Below, piece after piece: positions 13,872 to 27,087 of a stretch of DNA of 32,000 bases; the first letter of the stretch is position 1, and each line of letters opens with the position of its first letter. A program made the position numbers and the translations under genes. The DNA lies in assembly GCA_038889235.1 (NCBI GenBank), contig JAWAHN010000002.1:44356-76355 (forward strand), in the 5' to 3' direction. This DNA comes from Candidatus Jordarchaeales archaeon. GTDB taxonomy: Archaea > Asgardarchaeota > Jordiarchaeia > Jordiarchaeales > Freyrarchaeaceae. The notes under the pieces are model-generated. The model was not told the DNA's origin. It ran no database searches and saw nothing but the letters and a program-made list of their open reading frames with translations.

Positions 13872-14246
13872 TTACTCTTCTTCTAACAATCTTTTGACCT
13901 CTTCAGATACGCGCTTCAAAGTCATTAGTATGAGCCCTAAGTTGGCATTGTTCCTCGCGAGAACAGTTAGCAGCGCGCTCTCCCCCGCACCCTTTATTAT
14001 TACGTACCCGTTCTCCCCCTGCAACAAGACTTGCTGCAGTCTCCCCCTAACAAGCTCAGCACTAACCTTTTCTGAAACGCTAAGTATAGCTGACGCCATA
14101 GCGGCAACAACTGCCTCATCTATCTCCTGAGGCATAGCTGATACTATTGGAAGCCCCTCAGTACTTACTATCGCGCTAGCTTCTATTCCAGGGGTGGTAG
14201 CCTCCATGTTCCTGAGCAACTCTAAAAGTTCCTCAATTTTGGTCAC
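13872..14246 (-). CDS. Roadblock/LC7 domain protein
   Basis: IEASAIVSTEGLPI, AAMASAILS, ELVRGRLQQVLLQGENG, NLGLI pattern. Confidence 0.92.
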   Translation of the reverse strand: MTKIEELLELLRNMEATTPGIEASAIVSTEGLPIVSAMPQEIDEAVVAAMASAILSVSEKVSAELVRGRLQQVLLQGENGYVIIKGAGESALLTVLARNNANLGLILMTLKRVSEEVKRLLEEE

Positions 14247-20182: not shown

Positions 20183-20468
20183 CTAGCCTCCAAGCATTTT
20201 TCCCTTTCCATACCAAGGAATTACCGAGCTCTAAAGATTTCCGCTAAAACCGTTTCAAAACACCGAAGAGAGTTGGTTAAACGCGATACGCTGCCGCTCG
20301 TTGCGGAGGGAGTCACGCCTCTTCAACAATAAAGCGCCTCAACAACTAGTAACCTCTTAAGGCAAAATTTATTAGAAGGGCACAATCATCTACATTGAAT
20401 CAAGCAATTCCATCCTCAAATTTTCCTGGGTGGTTTAACGCTGGGGGGTTTCTTTAGTGCGAGAGAGC

Positions 20469-23072
20469 ATGAGTACTGTTGAAGCAATAAGGTTGGCTGA
20501 CTTCTCCGTCCTTGGGTGTTCTATTGACAAGGATGCTTTCGGCTTCTCTGTAGGTCCTCTGGGTCTCAGCGGCCGTGACGCTAGAATGCTTGCGTCAAAA
20601 GTGGCAGAAGCGATACACATGCTCAACAGCCTGCTCTTGGAGGAAAGCGGAGTTAAACTGAAGTACGCTGAGTTCGAATTAACAAGTAGAGAAAGAGGGA
20701 ATTTTCCCGAAGCCATGGTTCTGGTCACAGGCGGCGAAGAGGAAGCCTCAAACTTCATGATGCTTCTGGAGCACGAGAAAGGGCTTGTCGACGTTTTCAA
20801 GTTAATGGATGTTGCCGACGAGATCCTAAACAAGTTAAGCGATGTAAAGCTCGCATGTAAAGCCTCCGGGCTTAGTGAAAACGACGAGAAAAATGTGATA
20901 CAGAAGTTTGTAGAAAGGTTTGCGAGGAAAATGTACGCTGAGGTTTCACAAAGAAAGTACAGGGAAAAATACGCGAGAGACCTTTTAACCCACCTGAATA
21001 TAACGAGTGGTTTGACCGTTGAGGGGAGGCTTGAAACGGACTACAGCGCAAAAGAACCAAGGTATAACTTACTAGTAGAAAAAACATCCCTGGAGCCGGT
21101 TGCCGGAAACTTAGAGTACCTTGAAAGCTTTATATTCACTAAGACAGCTCTCGAAGTGCTCGCCAACGATGTTGCCCTCATTGGGGCAAAAATTCTTTCG
21201 CTCATTAATGATTACACCCTAGACGAAGTTGAAGACGGTGTTGTAACACGCTTAGCCGACGCCTTTTGGTCCCGCGTTAAACTAGGATCTCAAAGCTTAG
21301 AGGAACTACTGGAGGAAGTAAAGTCATTTATGGATGAAGCGAGGAACGCGTTAGACTCAGTGAAAAAAGGAATTGACTCTATATTGTACGCGGGGGAAAG
21401 AAAACAAATAGAAAAGCATTTAGAATCCATTAACGAGACTGGCTTAGCCTCGTGTTTTAAAGAAGTATTGGTTGCCTTCCTTTCAAGAAAGGCTTCTAGT
21501 GAGGATGTATGGGGCTGGCAGCTTAAAGAAGAACTCACATATTTCTTAGACCATGCTGAAAGAGGGTTGAAAAACTTCGAAAGAGCCACATCTGCTTTCA
21601 TATTTGCGAGCGCCGAAAAAAGGGCAGTTAAAGACATTCTCTCGGACTATATCAGGCAAATTGTAGATCCGGTGCGAAAAACGATACTAAACGTTTACCT
21701 CGAAAAAACGGGAAAAATGCTAGAAAATTTCATAGAAGAAAGAAGCTTAACTGTCCCCCTAAAATGGGACGTGAATACCCTAAAAAGCAGGATCAAAGAC
21801 GACCTTTCACTTCACTTAGAGCTTAGGTTCCGTCTTCCACTAGTCGAGTTGCTTAATATAGCTTTCAGTAGTACTTTACTCGAAGTGGGCTCCGAAACAC
21901 GGGAGGCTATTGAAGAAACTTATCGAGAGATTAAGGAATACGTCTCCGAAGTAGTCCCGGGGCTTGCTGACTATCTTCTCAGCCACAACGTCCTGAAAGT
22001 TTTCCTAGAACAAAATCGGGACGTCAACTCTCCTGAACTTTTCTCCCAAAGATATTTCGATTTCATATCGAGCGACGTGAAAGAGTACCCGAAATGGGAA
22101 AAAATGGCTAAAATCTGGCTTGAATCGTTCCCCTCCAGCGTCAAAGGGGCGGTTGACGTGTGCAAGCTGGCAGCGGAGTTCGTGAAGTTCATAAATAAGC
22201 TCAGAGACGAAGGCACTTCCACGGAAAAAGCTAGAGAGCTGATTGAACTAAAAATCAAGATGTACCAGGAAAGGGTGGAGGAGCTTACAAAAAAGCTCTC
22301 AGAGCTTGATATGAAAAAGATAAGCATTGAGAAACAAATAGACGTCCTACAGTCCCAGCTAAGCTCTACAGAACTCATGGAAAGAAACTTGAAAATAGAC
22401 TACAGCGTCAACATAGCAAGTCTTCAAGAACTAAGAAAAACACTAGAAGCGAAAAAAGCAGAACTAAAAGAAATAGAGCAGAAAGCAGTGGAAGCCGCCG
22501 AAGCATCCATCCTAGAAAGAAAAAGCACACTGGAAAAAGAGATAAAAGAAATTGCTGAAAGGTCGCAGTGCTTGCTCTCCGAAATTGAAAGGATAGACAG
22601 AGAGTTAAACGAAGTAGCAAACTCTAAAGAAAGGTTTAAAGATGCTTTAAAGCAACTCCATGCGCATCTCGAAGAAATGGCGAACCAAATAGCAACAGTT
22701 AACGCTGAGATAGAAAAGGAAGAGACGCTCAGAAAAGCGCACCTAAAGTTCCTCGAAAGATACCTACACGTTTTAGAGGAAGAGTTCTTCTTGTCTCACG
22801 TGTTAAAAAACGAGGTGCTCGCCTTCGCACGGGATAAAATCGCGTCACTGCATGCATCAATTACCCTAGATGAGGGATTCCTCAACGAGTTTAAGGATTA
22901 CGCCAGACGTTTGTTTCTTAAGTCTTTCAGCCGCGTGCAGTTGAAGCCACTAAGGCTACTACTCTTAAGCACCGAGAGAAAAGACCTCAACTACGTGGTG
23001 ATGTACAACTATCCAACTGATAACTCTTTCAGAATGATCATAGGAAACAACTTTCTGTCCTTAAAGGAGTAA
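20469..23072 (+). CDS. Hypothetical ~870-aa protein with ~180-aa coiled coil
   Basis: Long uninterrupted ORF with E/K/L-rich coding bias; heptad-rich segment around residues 595-775; no recognisable catalytic motif. Confidence 0.85.
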   Translation: MSTVEAIRLADFSVLGCSIDKDAFGFSVGPLGLSGRDARMLASKVAEAIHMLNSLLLEESGVKLKYAEFELTSRERGNFPEAMVLVTGGEEEASNFMMLLEHEKGLVDVFKLMDVADEILNKLSDVKLACKASGLSENDEKNVIQKFVERFARKMYAEVSQRKYREKYARDLLTHLNITSGLTVEGRLETDYSAKEPRYNLLVEKTSLEPVAGNLEYLESFIFTKTALEVLANDVALIGAKILSLINDYTLDEVEDGVVTRLADAFWSRVKLGSQSLEELLEEVKSFMDEARNALDSVKKGIDSILYAGERKQIEKHLESINETGLASCFKEVLVAFLSRKASSEDVWGWQLKEELTYFLDHAERGLKNFERATSAFIFASAEKRAVKDILSDYIRQIVDPVRKTILNVYLEKTGKMLENFIEERSLTVPLKWDVNTLKSRIKDDLSLHLELRFRLPLVELLNIAFSSTLLEVGSETREAIEETYREIKEYVSEVVPGLADYLLSHNVLKVFLEQNRDVNSPELFSQRYFDFISSDVKEYPKWEKMAKIWLESFPSSVKGAVDVCKLAAEFVKFINKLRDEGTSTEKARELIELKIKMYQERVEELTKKLSELDMKKISIEKQIDVLQSQLSSTELMERNLKIDYSVNIASLQELRKTLEAKKAELKEIEQKAVEAAEASILERKSTLEKEIKEIAERSQCLLSEIERIDRELNEVANSKERFKDALKQLHAHLEEMANQIATVNAEIEKEETLRKAHLKFLERYLHVLEEEFFLSHVLKNEVLAFARDKIASLHASITLDEGFLNEFKDYARRLFLKSFSRVQLKPLRLLLLSTERKDLNYVVMYNYPTDNSFRMIIGNNFLSLKE

Positions 23073-23089
23073 AGGGGGGCAATTTTTCT

Positions 23090-25459
23090 ATGGATGTCCC
23101 GATACAAAAAGACGTTTTGAGGGAAGTCGCGCCTGGGTTTGCCGTAAGGAGGGCACTAAGCAGCTTTCTGGTTTCAAGGCCCAATTGGCCTCAAATTACC
23201 AAAATAGCCGGAGAACGGGCAAGCATACAGGACTTTGTTAAAGCGGCAATGGCCGCGTACATTTACAATTACATCGGAGTACGCACTATACCCCTAGAAT
23301 CGGAAGAAGCCGCATCTAAAGAGGCCGCTGAAAAAGAGGCCAAAGATCTTTTTGCAGAGATAACCAAGATTCTAAAAGACAGCTTTCAAAAAGACGTACA
23401 AATTCTTGAGAAGAAAACTCTCCTCGAATTGGCTGCTCTAAAGGCTAAGCTCTCCCAGAAGGAAGGAGAGGTTGAAGAGCTCGTCTTAAGCTACTTAAAT
23501 GATGTCCTTGCGCGCTTCTCTAAAACATATTTGGTAGATTTCTTAGGGGATTTGTTAGGTGTCTCGTATAGGTTTAGGTCAGAATTTATCAAGATGACAT
23601 ATGGATTAAAGCCGTCATCGATAGACGTAGAGGAGGAAGTAAAGAAGCCGCATGAGGAAGAATGCGTGGAAATAGCAACTCACTTAAGGGTCAAGAAGGA
23701 GTTAATGCTAAAGGAAGATGAAAAAACGCTGGAGGCTAAGGAACTTAAACAATTAGCGAAAAAAGTAGCGTCGCACGTTTCAAGTCGCATACCAAAGGAT
23801 GAAACTGATCTGAAATTCTACATTGAAGTTTACGAGTTAAAGCTTCAACTCTTAAAAGTACTCGAAGAATATACGTCCAAGAAGGCTGAGCTAGCTGAAA
23901 TTATCGACAAACTCTCTGAAAAAATTCTCACATACTTGAAGAAAAAGGCTCACGAAAGAACAGTTTTCCGAAAAGTGGTCTCACTGCTCGCCGGATATCG
24001 CACAGAAGAAGAACTAAAGATAAACCTTGACGGCGTCATGATGGCTCTCTCAGAAAATGAGAGCTACAAAAGTGTTAAAAACAAGCTCGAGGAGCTCGGA
24101 ATTGATAAGAAGGAGCTCGTATTCCTCATCGAACGATATAGAAGGCTCGAAAAAATCGAAGACGTACTACTTAACAAGGTCATCCCACGGCTTAGAGGAA
24201 GAGGATACGCTATACAGAAGGTCAGCCTAGATATCTTTGCGCTTCCACCAAACAAACTAAGCGGCTTAGACGAGCTCATATTGAAGGAAGTTAAAAACTA
24301 CGTATCCCCTCCACCGCCAGAAGAATTCAAGCTACTGTTAGAAAACAAGGCTTTACTAGAAAAGGTATTAGAGGCAGCCGGCTTCTCCGACGTTAACACG
24401 TTAAAAGCAATACTTGAAGCTGAAGCCTCGCTGGAAGAGGTAACTAGGGAAGTAATTAGTAGCATATTCTTTGAATGCATGGCTCACGCTTCGCGTGTAG
24501 TGGAGCTATACAATAGAGCTAAGAGGGATGGAGAGCGCTTCAAAATCCTCTTTAAAATCATAAATGATGAGAAAGACGAAAACATAAGGTGCATGAAAGA
24601 AGAACTGTTAGTCGACCTATTACTGCAGAGGTGTAAGGAAATACATGAAGTCTTCCCCGAACTAACCCTGAAGGACATTTACGGATTCATTTGGGCTAGA
24701 CAAATAAACAAAACGCTAAACGATGCTGTAAAAGAGCTAGAAAGCACGGCAAGTCCGCTATTCGCGGGAGTTACCGAAGCTAAATTGAACTTCGACGCGC
24801 TCCCCCTGATGAGCTACTCAGCGGCATTTGACATCTCGCAAAGATATTTAGAATATGGCAGAGAGCAAATGGAAGCCATCCAAAGAGCTAGGGAAAAAGA
24901 GGTTGAAGCAAAAGAAAGGATTAAGAAAGAAGTCTATGAGAAGATTGAACCCACCGGATTACTTGAAAAGAAGCTCACAGTAGCATTAAAGGCGCCAGTA
25001 AGTGTAGCGAAGGCCGAGTTAGAGTGGAGCGAGAGCGACACGAGAAAACTGGAGGCGATGAGCAAAATATTCGTGAGGACTGAAATCGGGAAAAAGATCT
25101 GCCCTAATTGTGCTGTAGAAGTTAAAGATAACTCGTGCCCGGAGCATGGCTATATAGAACCAGTGGTGATGGGATCGTTGGAAGCTCTTGCTAAATTCTA
25201 CTTCCTCTCACTTAAGATCATAAGAGACTTAACCGAGCAGAAAGTGAGAACGAAGATCGGAGAAATCACATTCAGAGACGCGCTGAGGACCGTTAAATCG
25301 ATATTCTTAGAGTTAAAGATGAAAGGAAAGCTTTCACCTAAAAGCACGGAAAAGATGGTAGTAGAAGGAGACTTGGATCGTTATTTGATACCCGAAATAG
25401 CGAACAAAATAGCAGAAGAATATGCCAAAGCTGTAGGGTACATTAGGAAGCTCAAGTGA
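23090..25459 (+). CDS. Hypothetical 789-aa mostly helical protein with CxxC-x9-CxxH Zn finger
   Basis: Long ORF; CPNCAVEVKDNSCPEHG near the C-terminus; 17 nt after the previous stop. Confidence 0.85.
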   Translation: MDVPIQKDVLREVAPGFAVRRALSSFLVSRPNWPQITKIAGERASIQDFVKAAMAAYIYNYIGVRTIPLESEEAASKEAAEKEAKDLFAEITKILKDSFQKDVQILEKKTLLELAALKAKLSQKEGEVEELVLSYLNDVLARFSKTYLVDFLGDLLGVSYRFRSEFIKMTYGLKPSSIDVEEEVKKPHEEECVEIATHLRVKKELMLKEDEKTLEAKELKQLAKKVASHVSSRIPKDETDLKFYIEVYELKLQLLKVLEEYTSKKAELAEIIDKLSEKILTYLKKKAHERTVFRKVVSLLAGYRTEEELKINLDGVMMALSENESYKSVKNKLEELGIDKKELVFLIERYRRLEKIEDVLLNKVIPRLRGRGYAIQKVSLDIFALPPNKLSGLDELILKEVKNYVSPPPPEEFKLLLENKALLEKVLEAAGFSDVNTLKAILEAEASLEEVTREVISSIFFECMAHASRVVELYNRAKRDGERFKILFKIINDEKDENIRCMKEELLVDLLLQRCKEIHEVFPELTLKDIYGFIWARQINKTLNDAVKELESTASPLFAGVTEAKLNFDALPLMSYSAAFDISQRYLEYGREQMEAIQRAREKEVEAKERIKKEVYEKIEPTGLLEKKLTVALKAPVSVAKAELEWSESDTRKLEAMSKIFVRTEIGKKICPNCAVEVKDNSCPEHGYIEPVVMGSLEALAKFYFLSLKIIRDLTEQKVRTKIGEITFRDALRTVKSIFLELKMKGKLSPKSTEKMVVEGDLDRYLIPEIANKIAEEYAKAVGYIRKLK

Positions 25460-25473
25460 GAATAGGTGGTCTC

Positions 25474-26670
25474 ATGAAGGAGACTCTCTTCGAAAAGTTA
25501 GGAATACTTTTGCTCAACGGCAAAGAAGAAGAGGCCCTAGACCTCCTAAAAACCCTTATGTGCGACGAGGACCCGGAGGTTAAGGTGGCGTCGCTGGCTG
25601 TGATTAGCACATTAATGCAACGCTTCCGCAGAGTTGTTGAAGGAGTGCTCCCGCTCGTTTTAAGAGCAGCGCTAACCGACCAGCAGACCTATGTGAGGGG
25701 TAACGCATTGGAAGTCCTAGGTAAAGCAGCATGCTACACTCCCAACGCTGTCGTGGACTCCTTGCCTGAAGTGATTTCATGCATAAACTCCCAGGACAGC
25801 AACTTGGCCTGGAATGCCGTCGTCACATTGGGATGGATCGGTGGAAGCAACCCCAAGATAGTAGAACCATTCATGGAAGAAATAGCTAAAAACCTTGACT
25901 CTGAGCACGAAATCGCAAGAGGAGCTTCTGCAATGGCGATGGGGTGGATAGGTGGCGTCCGCCCAGATCTCGTAAAGAAATACGTTCTGAAGCTAGTCAA
26001 AGTAGCCACTTCTGACGAAAAAGAAGAAGTAAGATTGAACGCCATGGATGCATTAGCGTCAATATCTCACGCCGACGCCACACTGCTTAAAGGCTTCCTG
26101 AAAAACATAGCGCTAGCATCTATCACTGATGAAAACGAGAACGTTAGGGGAAGCGCCCTAGAGGCAATAACTGGATTCTGTAAAAGGTTTCCGGATGCAT
26201 CCGCAGAAGTAGTGTTATCCATACTGGATAACGTCTTCGAGAATAGAGATGTTAACTGGAAGGCCATCGCCACCATAGGATTCCTAGGAGCCGGAAACCC
26301 CGACGCCATCCCTTACATTTTAAACACTCTTACTGGACAACTGGGTAATTTAAAAGGCGCTGCTAGGGCGACAGCAATACTGGCGGTGGGGTGGGTCCTA
26401 GGAAACAACCCCGGGTTCCCTACGCGAGAAGCAGAAAAAGTAATTAATTTCCTGGTACGTTTCCTAAAGGACGAGGACTCAAAAGTTAGAGAAAGCGTCA
26501 TTGAAGCCATAGGGTGGATAAGCGCTAACAGCCACGCGTTGTTGAAGAAATATCTGCCAGTTGTATTGAACGTGCTGCGTGACGAGAGAGACAGTGCTGT
26601 TAAGAGAAAATCGGAAGAAGTTGCAGAACTTATGAGCAAAAGGCTATTAGACTATGAAGCGAAAAGTTAA
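25474..26670 (+). CDS. HEAT-repeat (alpha-solenoid) protein
   Basis: About 10 repeats of ~37-40 aa (DEDPEVKVASL, YVRGNALEVLG, EVRLNAMDAL, NVRGSALEAI, KVRESVIEAIG). ATG 25474 follows GGTGG. Confidence 0.88.
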   Translation: MKETLFEKLGILLLNGKEEEALDLLKTLMCDEDPEVKVASLAVISTLMQRFRRVVEGVLPLVLRAALTDQQTYVRGNALEVLGKAACYTPNAVVDSLPEVISCINSQDSNLAWNAVVTLGWIGGSNPKIVEPFMEEIAKNLDSEHEIARGASAMAMGWIGGVRPDLVKKYVLKLVKVATSDEKEEVRLNAMDALASISHADATLLKGFLKNIALASITDENENVRGSALEAITGFCKRFPDASAEVVLSILDNVFENRDVNWKAIATIGFLGAGNPDAIPYILNTLTGQLGNLKGAARATAILAVGWVLGNNPGFPTREAEKVINFLVRFLKDEDSKVRESVIEAIGWISANSHALLKKYLPVVLNVLRDERDSAVKRKSEEVAELMSKRLLDYEAKS

Positions 26671-26733: not shown

Positions 26734-27087
26734 GTGGTTGAAAAATTGTCAAGAGAAAGACAGCGCTCTATTAGGTATACAAGACAGAGGTGTGAGTTTT
26801 GCGGCGGACAAGTAATCTTTGACTTCTCTCAAAGAGTGCGCGTTTGCAGCTCGTGCGGGTTAGTCCAGGAGGGCAAAAGTGGATCTGAAATATCTCTTGA
26901 CGAATTTTTGAGGGAGCTTCAATTTGCAAACACTATCGAAGAACTGGCTGCCCGTCTCGGTATAAGCGACTGGGAGATCGAGCGCAAGTTAGTATTGATG
27001 CAAAAAGAGGGACTAGTTGAAATTAAAGATAATAAAGTTTTTTTAACCACTAAGGGACGCAGAAAGCTACATAAAGATATCATATAA
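26734..27087 (+). CDS. TFIIB-type Zn ribbon fused to a winged-helix domain
   Basis: CEFCGGQVIFDFSQRVRVCSSCGLVQE followed by IEELAARLGIS...LQKEG-like helix and VFLTTKG wing. Confidence 0.75.
   Translation: MVEKLSRERQRSIRYTRQRCEFCGGQVIFDFSQRVRVCSSCGLVQEGKSGSEISLDEFLRELQFANTIEELAARLGISDWEIERKLVLMQKEGLVEIKDNKVFLTTKGRRKLHKDII

Follow-up and report, generated by a model that had tools for sequence, protein, structure and literature searches.

At the core of the locus examined here lies an old pair of genes, confined to Asgard archaea, whose products are on balance most likely two subunits of a non-enzymatic scaffold. Conservation of the pair extends over Loki-, Thor-, Hel- and Jordarchaeota, but no domain, fold or homologue of either protein is known elsewhere. 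The preliminary description of this 32,000-nucleotide stretch of Candidatus Jordarchaeales DNA (the window) had proposed an undescribed structural scaffold of three proteins; the conservation of the g1–g2 pair and its predicted interface support the scaffold, but not the three-part set with a HEAT protein. Our analysis corrects the operon picture, in which the HEAT solenoid had made the locus look eukaryote-like.

Gene layout and signals in the window

Three co-oriented genes occupy the plus strand (20457/20469–23072, 23090–25459 and 25474–26670), with a promoter-like box ahead of them and a fourth gene behind:

20364–20374, plus strand: TATA/BRE-like box AAAATTTATTA upstream of g1, read in the window sequence
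20457–23072, plus strand: gene 1 (g1; P0001), 871 aa from GTG 20457, or 867 aa from ATG 20469
23090–25459, plus strand: gene 2 (g2; P0002), 789 aa, all-alpha subunit
25474–26670, plus strand: gene 3 (g3; P0003), 398-aa HEAT-repeat solenoid
26734–27087, plus strand: gene 4 (g4), 117 aa, putative Zn-ribbon plus winged-helix protein

The first reading of this region as three tightly spaced genes with SD-like sites and a promoter-like box was confirmed for the open reading frames, the gaps and the box: GGGGGG precedes the g2 ATG in the 17-nt g1–g2 gap, and an SD-like AGGTGG precedes the g3 ATG in the 14-nt g2–g3 gap. In four related contigs, the region upstream of g1 carries a similar GCAAA(A/T)TTTATTA-like box together with a GGGGG/GGAGG site. 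Since g1 relatives start 4–6 codons ahead of the 'MST' residues, and the G-run at 20444–20449 is spaced 7 nt from GTG 20457 and 19 nt from ATG 20469, the GTG is the likelier g1 start. Full-length orthologue identity of 51–88% argues that the window genes are real and not chance ORFs. TATA-like boxes were found within the 63-nt g3–g4 gap; g4 probably has its own promoter, and g3 is probably co-transcribed with the pair in the window's family.

The absence of enzymatic, Walker or TM motifs claimed at the outset was borne out by motif, hydropathy and family scans, in which a regular-expression search revealed no Walker A in g1, g2 or g3, no convincing TM segment was present in the three proteins (maximal 19-residue Kyte–Doolittle mean 1.62), and none of them matched an enzymatic Pfam or NCBIfam family. 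The cluster is flanked in the window by housekeeping genes (GlyRS, radical SAM, aminotransferase, EF-1beta, CdhB, NusA-like and AspRS), and the entire 18-kb region is syntenic in the window's order, so that the local context is silent on function in this lineage.

Distribution and relatives of the gene pair

Profiles of g2 and g1 identified members in 231 and 228 of 400 Asgard genomes, respectively, and each gene was found in 59 of the 90 high-quality genomes; the range of the pair amounts to about half of Asgard archaeal genera. The per-family pattern of the two genes is identical: both are present in f1, f2, f17–f20 and f30–f33, and neither was found in f3–f16 or f22–f29, which make up 22 of the Asgard families sampled (33 in total). 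Because of this absence, the pair bears on differences among Asgard lineages and not directly on eukaryote origins. The named members belong to Jord-, Loki-, Hel- and Thorarchaeota and are all annotated as hypothetical proteins. The pair is usually single-copy and encodes proteins of about 800–870 residues, with g1 directly upstream of g2, in the order g1 to g2, in 37 of 40 sampled g2 copies. The gap between them has a median of −1 nt (range −44 to +73), and the overlapping or abutting frames fit coupled translation in equal amounts. In family f17 the two genes are unlinked, yet both are present, and elsewhere their adjacency persists across classes whose other neighbours all differ. Co-conservation, which had been set as a test for all three genes, thus holds for g1 and g2 across distant Asgard lineages but not for g3.

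No Pfam family was detected in any of 29 diverse g1 members or in any of 35 g2 members, neither protein matched an NCBIfam family or a PDB sequence, and no match to solved or named predicted folds was obtained for either. An exhaustive search of 1.84 billion protein representatives returned only 101 clusters, and no eukaryotic homologue of the pair was found among these 1.84 billion proteins. Comparison of g1 and g2 with exocyst/COG/GARP, adaptins, HAWKs, SMC heads and kleisins detected no similarity, so that the suggested kinship with eukaryotic tethers and coats or with SMC/kleisin/HAWK complexes gained no support for either protein; nor was a match to a known prokaryotic system found for the pair, in line with its initial portrayal as undescribed. 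Outside their own family, g1 and g2 are without detectable relatives.

Architecture of g1 and g2

Family alignments and structural models divide the two proteins as follows, with all coordinates on the plus strand:

20469–20813, plus strand: g1 residues 1–115, conserved N-terminal alpha/beta domain
20829–20951, plus strand: g1 residues 121–161, helix pair, predicted g2-binding
21216–22208, plus strand: g1 residues 250–580, all-helical body, pLDDT about 70–90
22221–22844, plus strand: g1 residues 585–792, antiparallel coiled-coil hairpin (helices 585–672 and 679–792)
22854–23069, plus strand: g1 residues 796–867, conserved C-terminal helix plus strands
24104–24364, plus strand: g2 residues 339–425, autonomous module of ~90 residues
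24575–24604, plus strand: g2 residues 496–505, predicted g1-binding surface, part one; highly conserved stretch
24752–24823, plus strand: g2 residues 555–578, predicted g1-binding surface, part two
25100–25147, plus strand: g2 Zn knuckle CxxC-x8-CxxH (C671, C674, C683, H686)

The model suggests that g1 is a large subunit made up of a head, a helical body and a coiled-coil arm. The family alignment revealed residues 1–115 as the most conserved part of g1 and the hairpin as the least conserved. In the N-terminal domain a first helix is followed by two strands, a second helix, two to three further strands and a last helix, and residues 1–117 were modelled at pLDDT below 50, as was the C-terminal tail. 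In the helix pair, F147 is invariant and R150 nearly so. The designation of g1 as a giant coiled-coil protein is an overstatement, as the coiled coil covers only ~585–792, about a quarter of the protein; the remainder is modelled as the alpha/beta head, the helical body and, at the C-terminus, a small region of strands. The C-terminal piece may pack against the head, to which the hairpin would return it.

The module at g2 residues 339–425 reappears in Thorarchaeota surface proteins, where it forms the cytoplasmic tail (hhalign probability 96.8%, E 2.3e-10). This sharing involves a few Thorarchaeota proteins, and in five genomes searched the module is confined to g2 itself. In the stretch at 555–578, L566 is invariant, and S555 and Y576 are nearly so. 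Of the earlier label 'helical Zn-finger protein', the all-alpha character and the Zn knuckle of g2 were retained, but 25 of 35 diverse homologues have the knuckle and the other 10 lack it through a clean block deletion, indicating that it is dispensable in one lineage. Eleven residues of g2 are invariant, most of them charged (E12, E90, D150, E194, R469, E472, E517, R537 and D650), and these invariant charged residues could mark an unrecognised active site instead of interfaces.

Predicted g1–g2 complex

Prediction of the g1–g2 complex yielded ipSAE values of 0.75, 0.76 and 0.77 in three runs, compared with 0.00 for the best of three controls, with a contact agreement of at least 94% and a partner pLDDT of at least 77; g1 residues 263–795 and g2 residues 661–789 were excluded from the model. 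Among 80 solved complexes 58 attained the ipSAE mark, as did 2 of 110 mismatched pairs, a calibration that is rough here (own alignments, three chains). In the predicted interface, g2 residues 496–505 and 555–578 lie on the g1 helix pair 121–161, just behind the N-terminal domain, and these surfaces coincide with the stretches in which the two proteins are best conserved, including the invariant and nearly invariant residues. Profile searches found no solved complex resembling g1–g2 among PDB sequences, and the interface score is therefore unlikely to be a memory of a known structure. The inter-subunit interface expected of such a scaffold was thus predicted for g1–g2 with clean controls, and the model supports the binding of g1 and g2 to each other.

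The HEAT gene and alternative explanations

The assignment of g3 as a HEAT solenoid was verified by its Pfam HEAT_2 score (E 1.6e-32; 112 bits over five stretches, cut-off 27.7), and HEAT and HEAT_EZ scored 68.5 and 55.6 bits; the tandem repeats exceed the curated cut-off. For g4, Zn_Ribbon_TF scored E 3.9e-4 and 20.3 bits, under its cut-off of 29, and several wHTH families scored E 1e-3 to 3e-2, none of them reaching its cut-off. Within the cluster, no gene for an SMC, a kleisin or a mu/sigma-adaptin was found.

An obligate three-part scaffold of g1, g2 and the HEAT protein, akin to eukaryotic tether/coat or HEAT-associated SMC/kleisin complexes, would agree with the 14-nt g2–g3 gap and its SD-like site, and with the g1–g2–g3–g4 order, which every contig of the window's family retains (g2–g3 gaps 14–44 nt). 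It would also agree with the scores of g3 above the Pfam cut-offs for Cnd1 (4.9e-20, 72.6 bits) and Adaptin_N (4.7e-17, 62.2 bits), but both matches overlap the generic HEAT ones, and g3 is a third the length of Cnd1/adaptin large subunits. Against this scaffold, 31 kb separate the pair from the g3 orthologue (33–36% identity) in the complete genome of the sister family, where g4 also stands apart from the pair, at 1.9 kb from g3, and no HEAT gene adjoins the pair in Loki, in Thor or at any other locus sampled in other classes. Given also that g1 and g2 match no tether, coat, SMC-head or kleisin family, the obligate three-part scaffold is unlikely. The HEAT protein, described earlier as part of a multi-subunit scaffold, follows g2 only in the window's family; its gene is a recent local addition beside the pair, and g3 may be a lineage-specific accessory subunit of the pair's complex.

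Another explanation takes the g1 head as a roadblock/longin-type platform and the complex as a regulator or scaffold of a small GTPase (GAP, GEF or effector platform; compare Ragulator, MglB and longin-domain GEFs). In the model with pLDDT below 50, the predicted secondary-structure order of g1 residues 1–130 fits the alpha-beta-beta-alpha-beta-beta(-beta)-alpha order of roadblock domains, and a bona fide Robl_LC7 gene divergently adjoins g1, preceding the pair, in 8 Lokiarchaeia loci. This neighbour occurs in that class only, however, and no Robl_LC7 (PF03259) or longin match was obtained at E up to 0.01 in 29 g1 members. Comparison of g1 residues 1–130 with nine Asgard roadblock proteins gave an hhalign probability of 0.4%, and none of the sampled loci has a GTPase gene adjoining the pair, leaving a GTPase platform unlikely. 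The window's own roadblock gene (13875–14246; Robl_LC7 7.9e-18), named earlier alongside the operon, is 6 kb off behind four housekeeping genes and is not linked to it.

In a further alternative, g1 would be a decayed SMC/Rad50-type protein with a motif-less ATPase head that acts on DNA with g2 as a kleisin-like bridge, and in the window's family the wHTH and HEAT proteins would be accessories on the DNA side. The model gives g1 a long antiparallel intramolecular coiled coil, a criterion of SMC/Rad50 ABC-type ATPases, that joins the conserved N- and C-terminal pieces, and a Gly-rich strand-loop-helix was seen by eye at g1 residues 25–36 (GPGKL[TS] in Lokiarchaeia). However, this loop is without a conserved K-[ST], no Walker A (GxxxxGK[ST]) occurs across the g1 family, the g1 head and tail gave hhalign probabilities below 1% against the N- and C-terminal halves of the heads of 16 Asgard SMC proteins, and a g1 profile search of PDB sequences found no SMC or Rad50. 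The C-terminal piece of ~70 residues is too short for the ABC signature plus Walker B half, the hairpin apex has neither hinge nor zinc hook, the coiled-coil matches are generic for helical hairpins, and the genome already carries a canonical SMC and two SMC-like genes, all of which makes a decayed SMC very unlikely.

Lastly, the 18-kb synteny in the window's order, because of which g1–g2 adjacency there proves little, would suit functionally unrelated genes that share only a conserved neighbourhood, but this is highly improbable in view of an adjacency that outlasts the turnover of all other neighbours across classes, overlapping g1–g2 frames, matching phyletic patterns and a predicted interface with zero-score controls.

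Proposed arrangement and significance

In the two-subunit scaffold that we favour, g2 would dock via residues 496–505 and 555–578 onto g1 residues 121–161, as predicted with controls. According to the model, g1 would fold back through its antiparallel coiled-coil hairpin, roughly 13–15 nm long, and its conserved N- and C-terminal pieces, modelled at low pLDDT, may form one head, with the variable arm serving as a putative spacer or reach. Its context suggests that the complex could be a structural adaptor, possibly at the cytoplasmic face of the membrane. This possible membrane role is proposed because the g2 module doubles as a surface-protein tail and because, in Lokiarchaeia, the pair is accompanied by the roadblock gene and by a gene for a small two-TM protein, which follows the pair in 12 copies. 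The two-TM and roadblock neighbours, each kept only within a single class, may reflect inherited synteny. Carried further along the same three observations, g1–g2 would be a new Asgard cytoplasmic arm-and-body adaptor that recognises membrane-protein tails or links surface proteins with structures inside the cell, and in Jordarchaeales the HEAT solenoid would join it; this fuller version is quite unlikely as it stands. If the adaptor reading is true, the pair would represent a prokaryotic invention parallel to eukaryotic adaptor/coat logic and not its ancestor.

A complex of this size and degree of conservation probably has a central role in the cell biology of these lineages. The pair is also a concrete target, as it occurs in lineages of which some members are in culture and the predicted interface singles out residues for mutagenesis.

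Comparison with known systems

As in SMC/Rad50 proteins, the antiparallel coiled coil of g1 is modelled to return the C-terminus to the N-terminal region, and, as in their complexes with kleisins and HAWKs, a large partner (g2) is encoded next door, with a HEAT protein nearby in one family. In contrast to SMC/Rad50, g1 has no Walker A/B or signature motif, hinge or zinc hook and carries an extra 330-residue helical body; g2 is without the winged-helix ends of kleisins, and, unlike HAWK-type partners, the HEAT gene g3 is not co-conserved with the pair. The roadblock/longin platforms (MglB, Ragulator/LAMTOR and longin-domain GEF/GAP) share with the locus the helix/strand order predicted for g1 residues 1–130, the heterodimer logic and the roadblock gene that adjoins the pair in Lokiarchaeia, but g1 has no sequence or profile match to them, g2 contains no such domain, and no GTPase gene is linked. 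Among prokaryotic HEAT proteins (PBS-lyase-type and DVU0298 family), g3 is an ordinary solenoid matching HEAT_2, HEAT_PBS and DVU0298_fam, and is set apart by a specific orthologue group within the order (E 1e-71 to 1e-79) and by its placement after g2, in one family only. As for the CATCHR tethers (exocyst, COG, GARP and Dsl1) and AP adaptors, no fold or sequence match to them was found for g1 and g2, nor any eukaryotic homologue among the 1.84 billion proteins, and the pair was not found in 22 of 33 sampled Asgard families. The likeness to these systems lies in the large all-helical subunits, the coiled coil and the HEAT solenoid at this locus, and in the g2 module that doubles as a membrane-protein tail and recalls adaptor-tail recognition.

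Gene organization of the cluster

The cluster consists of four genes, g1 to g4, all in the same orientation, with a radical-SAM gene diverging from it at one end and an aminotransferase gene converging on it at the other (window positions):

20364-20374, AAAATTTATTA box upstream of g1
20457 or 20469 to 23072, + strand, g1, open reading frame of a protein with a head, a body and a coiled-coil arm
23090-25459, + strand, g2, open reading frame of an all-helical protein
25474-26670, + strand, g3, open reading frame of a HEAT-repeat solenoid
26734-27087, + strand, g4, open reading frame of a Zn-ribbon and winged-helix (wHTH) protein

The tight spacing noted in the preliminary description was borne out: 17 nt containing a GGGGGG run separate g1 from g2, 14 nt containing AGGTGG separate g2 from g3, and a box similar to the one upstream of g1, together with a G-rich ribosome site, precedes g1 in four related contigs. 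Since the relatives of g1 have their start codon 4-6 codons ahead of the residues 'MST', and a G-run lies 7 nt ahead of GTG 20457, this codon is more likely to be the g1 start than ATG 20469. TATA-like boxes occur within the 63-nt gap preceding g4, which may therefore have a promoter of its own. A motif scan of g1, g2 and g3 revealed neither a Walker A motif nor a TM segment, as the preliminary description had also stated. A bona fide roadblock/LC7 gene (13875-14246, - strand; Pfam E 7.9e-18) is found 6 kb upstream of g1; because four genes (Met aminopeptidase, beta-CASP RNase, GlyRS and the radical-SAM gene) separate the two, it is unlinked to the cluster here.

Conservation of the g1-g2 pair

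Among 40 g2 copies on 39 loci fetched from nine families, g1 was located directly 5' of g2 on the same strand in 37, with a median gap of -1 nt (range -44 to +73). One of the three remaining copies lies at a contig end, and the other two come from both genomes of family f17, where g1 and g2 are both present on separate contigs. All other neighbours differ from class to class: Thor-type loci carry a metallo-beta-lactamase-fold gene upstream and CutA1 plus two DHDPS-Fae fusion genes downstream; in Lokiarchaeia loci the pair is preceded by a Robl_LC7 gene in divergent orientation and a gene for a PLP enzyme, and followed by a small gene plus one that is PD-(D/E)XK-like. The adjacency that outlives this turnover, the overlapping frames and the matching phyletic patterns provide strong evidence, at the level of gene order and distribution, that the g1 and g2 products act together.

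In the Thor-type loci (L036:2149-3096, L036:8706-11587 and 12 others), the metallo-beta-lactamase-fold gene encodes 320 aa and is separated by 54-117 nt from g1, which it precedes on the same strand, and the DHDPS-Fae fusion genes, which are paralogous, lie 3' of g2 beyond the opposite-strand CutA1 gene. One Lokiarchaeia genome possesses two tandem g1-g2 pairs (L024:7894-12596 and L024:15253-19748) about 2.7 kb apart, the second with a shorter g2 of 735 aa, and many genomes of its family have two g2 matches.

A word-indexed homologue search with g2 returned only six close clusters (51-100% identity, one named Jordarchaeales), whose contigs keep the g1-g2-g3-g4 block together with the same flanking genes (GlyRS, RpoP, radical SAM, aminotransferase, EF-1beta, CdhB, a NusA-like gene and AspRS); synteny among such close relatives says little about function. 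The Jordarchaeales-only family implied by that search was overturned by six-frame profile searches of 400 genomes of the phylum, in which the g2 profile matched in 231 genomes, always within open frames of about 790-840 codons, and a diversified g1 profile matched in 228. The per-family tallies of the two genes are near-identical (see table), as are those for high-quality genomes (59 of 90 for each gene) and for genera (g2 in 44 of 85, g1 in 42 of 85). Lokiarchaeia lineages with cultured members possess the pair, and some genomes of family f19 are complete, in a single contig.

Table. Genomes with g2 and g1 matches in the sampled Asgard families (f1-f33)
f1: g2 4/4, g1 4/4
f2: g2 5/6, g1 5/6
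f17: g2 2/2, g1 2/2
f18: g2 1/1, g1 1/1
f19: g2 13/14, g1 14/14
f20: g2 122/135, g1 122/135
f21: weak, divergent matches only
f30: g2 1/1, g1 1/1
f31-f33: g2 79/89, g1 78/89
f3-f16 and f22-f29: g2 0, g1 0

When 1.84 billion representative proteins were searched exhaustively by HMMER with a diverse g2 profile, only 101 clusters emerged at E <=0.001, either complete proteins of about 800 residues or partial ones; no eukaryotic or bacterial relatives were among them. The named members are, without exception, hypothetical proteins of Thorarchaeota, Helarchaeota, Lokiarchaeota/Promethearchaeia or Jordarchaeales.

The preliminary description had proposed a three-gene operon; its g1-g2 core is co-conserved, but g3 and g4 are found 3' of g2 in no family other than that of the window. 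The same order contains a sister family with one complete genome, where the g3 orthologue (33-36% identity, E ~1e-75) is found 31 kb away from the pair. The g4 orthologue there is 1.9 kb distant from g3, and a 4-HFC-P synthase gene follows g2. In sampled loci of other classes, no HEAT gene adjoins the pair. The g3 product is an ordinary HEAT solenoid, whose Cnd1 and Adaptin_N matches overlap with generic HEAT ones. Judged by gene order, g3 is outside the conserved g1-g2 unit, and g3 and g4 were attached recently, in one family. The sister family also contains giant open reading frames, some 2,860 codons long (contig positions G116:C1:1938273-1943765 and similar places), whose HEAT matches to g3 are weak but recur along the frame (E 1e-6 to 1e-16), which suggests very large solenoid proteins.

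Predicted architecture of the g1 and g2 proteins

In the g1 model, built from a five-sequence alignment (mean pLDDT 66), residues 1-250 form an N-terminal alpha/beta region of low confidence and residues 250-580 a helical body modelled with confidence. Confidence is very high for an antiparallel coiled-coil hairpin made of helices 585-672 and 679-792, and low again for a C-terminal piece of helix and strand. Conservation runs opposite to model confidence: it is lowest in the arm and highest in the head (residues 1-180 plus 221-260) and in the tail (residues 801-860). This pattern fits an arm acting as a spacer and a head assembled from both ends of the chain, a packing that we infer. The g2 model (mean pLDDT 67) is entirely helical and well modelled at residues 14-555. 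Eleven residues of g2 are invariant among 35 sequences of about 20% identity. Of the 35 homologues, 25 have a CxxC-x8-CxxH knuckle; since it is deleted as a block in the other 10, the knuckle is unlikely to have a catalytic role.

Predicted binding of g1 to g2

A complex prediction was run with three chains, g1 1-262, g1 796-867 and g2 1-660 as the scored partner, using alignments of 29 rows for g1 and 35 rows for g2. The three runs scored 0.75, 0.76 and 0.77, versus 0.00 in all three controls, with contacts agreeing by at least 94% between runs and a partner pLDDT of at least 77. Among solved complexes 58 of 80 reach the score mark, and among mismatched pairs 2 of 110; these counts are only a rough guide for a three-chain job with its own alignments. 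In the predicted interface, g1 residue 28 and the stretch 121-161 meet g2 residues 496-505 and 555-578. These regions rank with the best-conserved of either protein; they include g1 F147 and g2 L566, which are invariant, and g1 R150, g2 S555 and g2 Y576, which are nearly so. Because profile searches of the PDB revealed no similar solved complex, this interface is unlikely to be a memory of a known structure. The prediction supports, though it does not demonstrate, binding of g1 to g2, and it is for this pair that the interacting subunits envisaged in the preliminary description gained backing.

Hints of cellular location

Three weak matches in the exhaustive search proved to be the C-termini of Thorarchaeota SBBP/DUF7948/TSP3 repeat proteins. 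In one of these surface proteins (P0098; L080:6001-8841), the last ~95 residues are homologous to g2 residues 339-425 (window 24104-24364; hhalign probability 96.8%, E 2.3e-10). This protein consists of a signal peptide, an SBBP beta-propeller with TSP3 repeats, one TM helix and then the g2-like module as a cytoplasmic tail; a second SBBP/DUF7948 gene, with a product of the same kind, adjoins it. Because it also occurs as such a tail, the g2 339-425 module is, by homology, an autonomous unit able to sit under a membrane. The module makes no contact with the g1 head in the complex prediction, and in five genomes searched for it elsewhere it was found in g2 only.

In two Lokiarchaeia families, 12 copies of g2 are followed after 160-190 nt by a gene for a ~90-residue protein that has a pair of TM helices and a tail rich in Lys (L042:8437-8700, L022:7680-7958, L023:7788-8084 and nine more), which matches no Pfam family. 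This small gene was considered as a counterpart of g4, to which it proved unrelated on comparison. In 8 loci of Lokiarchaeia (L042:2849-3235, L024:7050-7463 and a further six), a true roadblock gene (Robl_LC7, Pfam E ~1e-7) adjoins g1; it is usually divergent and is followed by the PLP-dependent enzyme gene. The shared tail module, the two-TM neighbour and the roadblock neighbour are each confined to one class, and jointly these hints lean, weakly, towards the cell periphery over DNA.

Comparison with known systems

Pfam and NCBIfam searches with g1 and g2 returned only coiled-coil noise (HAUS/augmin, APG6, SMC arm), as did Pfam searches with 29 g1 and 35 g2 homologues. Profile searches of PDB sequences found nothing, Foldseek of g2 against the PDB gave a best E of 0.04, and VIA-align wide with g1 gave only generic coiled coils. 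The AFDB clusters contained uncharacterised family members and then chemoreceptor-like helices, and the ESM Atlas yielded nothing by features or by shape (TM <=0.21). No description of the g1/g2 family was found in the searchable literature by family or accession numbers.

By eye, the helices and strands of the g1 head follow one another as in roadblock proteins, and a Gly-rich strand-loop-helix within it recalls a decayed P-loop (GPGKL[TS] in Lokiarchaeia). Both resemblances were dropped as family assignments for want of any profile-profile signal, the hhalign probability being 0.4% against roadblock proteins and <1% against SMC head halves. A comparison of g1 with g2 by hhalign likewise ruled out that the two are paralogues. 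The window's genome carries a canonical SMC gene and two SMC-like genes that are shorter (open frames of 1,122 and 814 codons), at G000:C1:621512-625024, 198134-201445 and 222779-223804.

The preliminary description had likened the operon to the tethering and coat complexes of eukaryotes and to SMC complexes with HEAT partners (HAWKs); fold and profile searches found no tie to any of these. Its suggestion of an undescribed system held in that Pfam, NCBIfam, PDB, AFDB and the ESM Atlas gave no match of g1 and g2 to a known prokaryotic one. The locus holds a two-gene module restricted to Asgard archaea, whose products very probably form a heteromeric, non-enzymatic scaffold.
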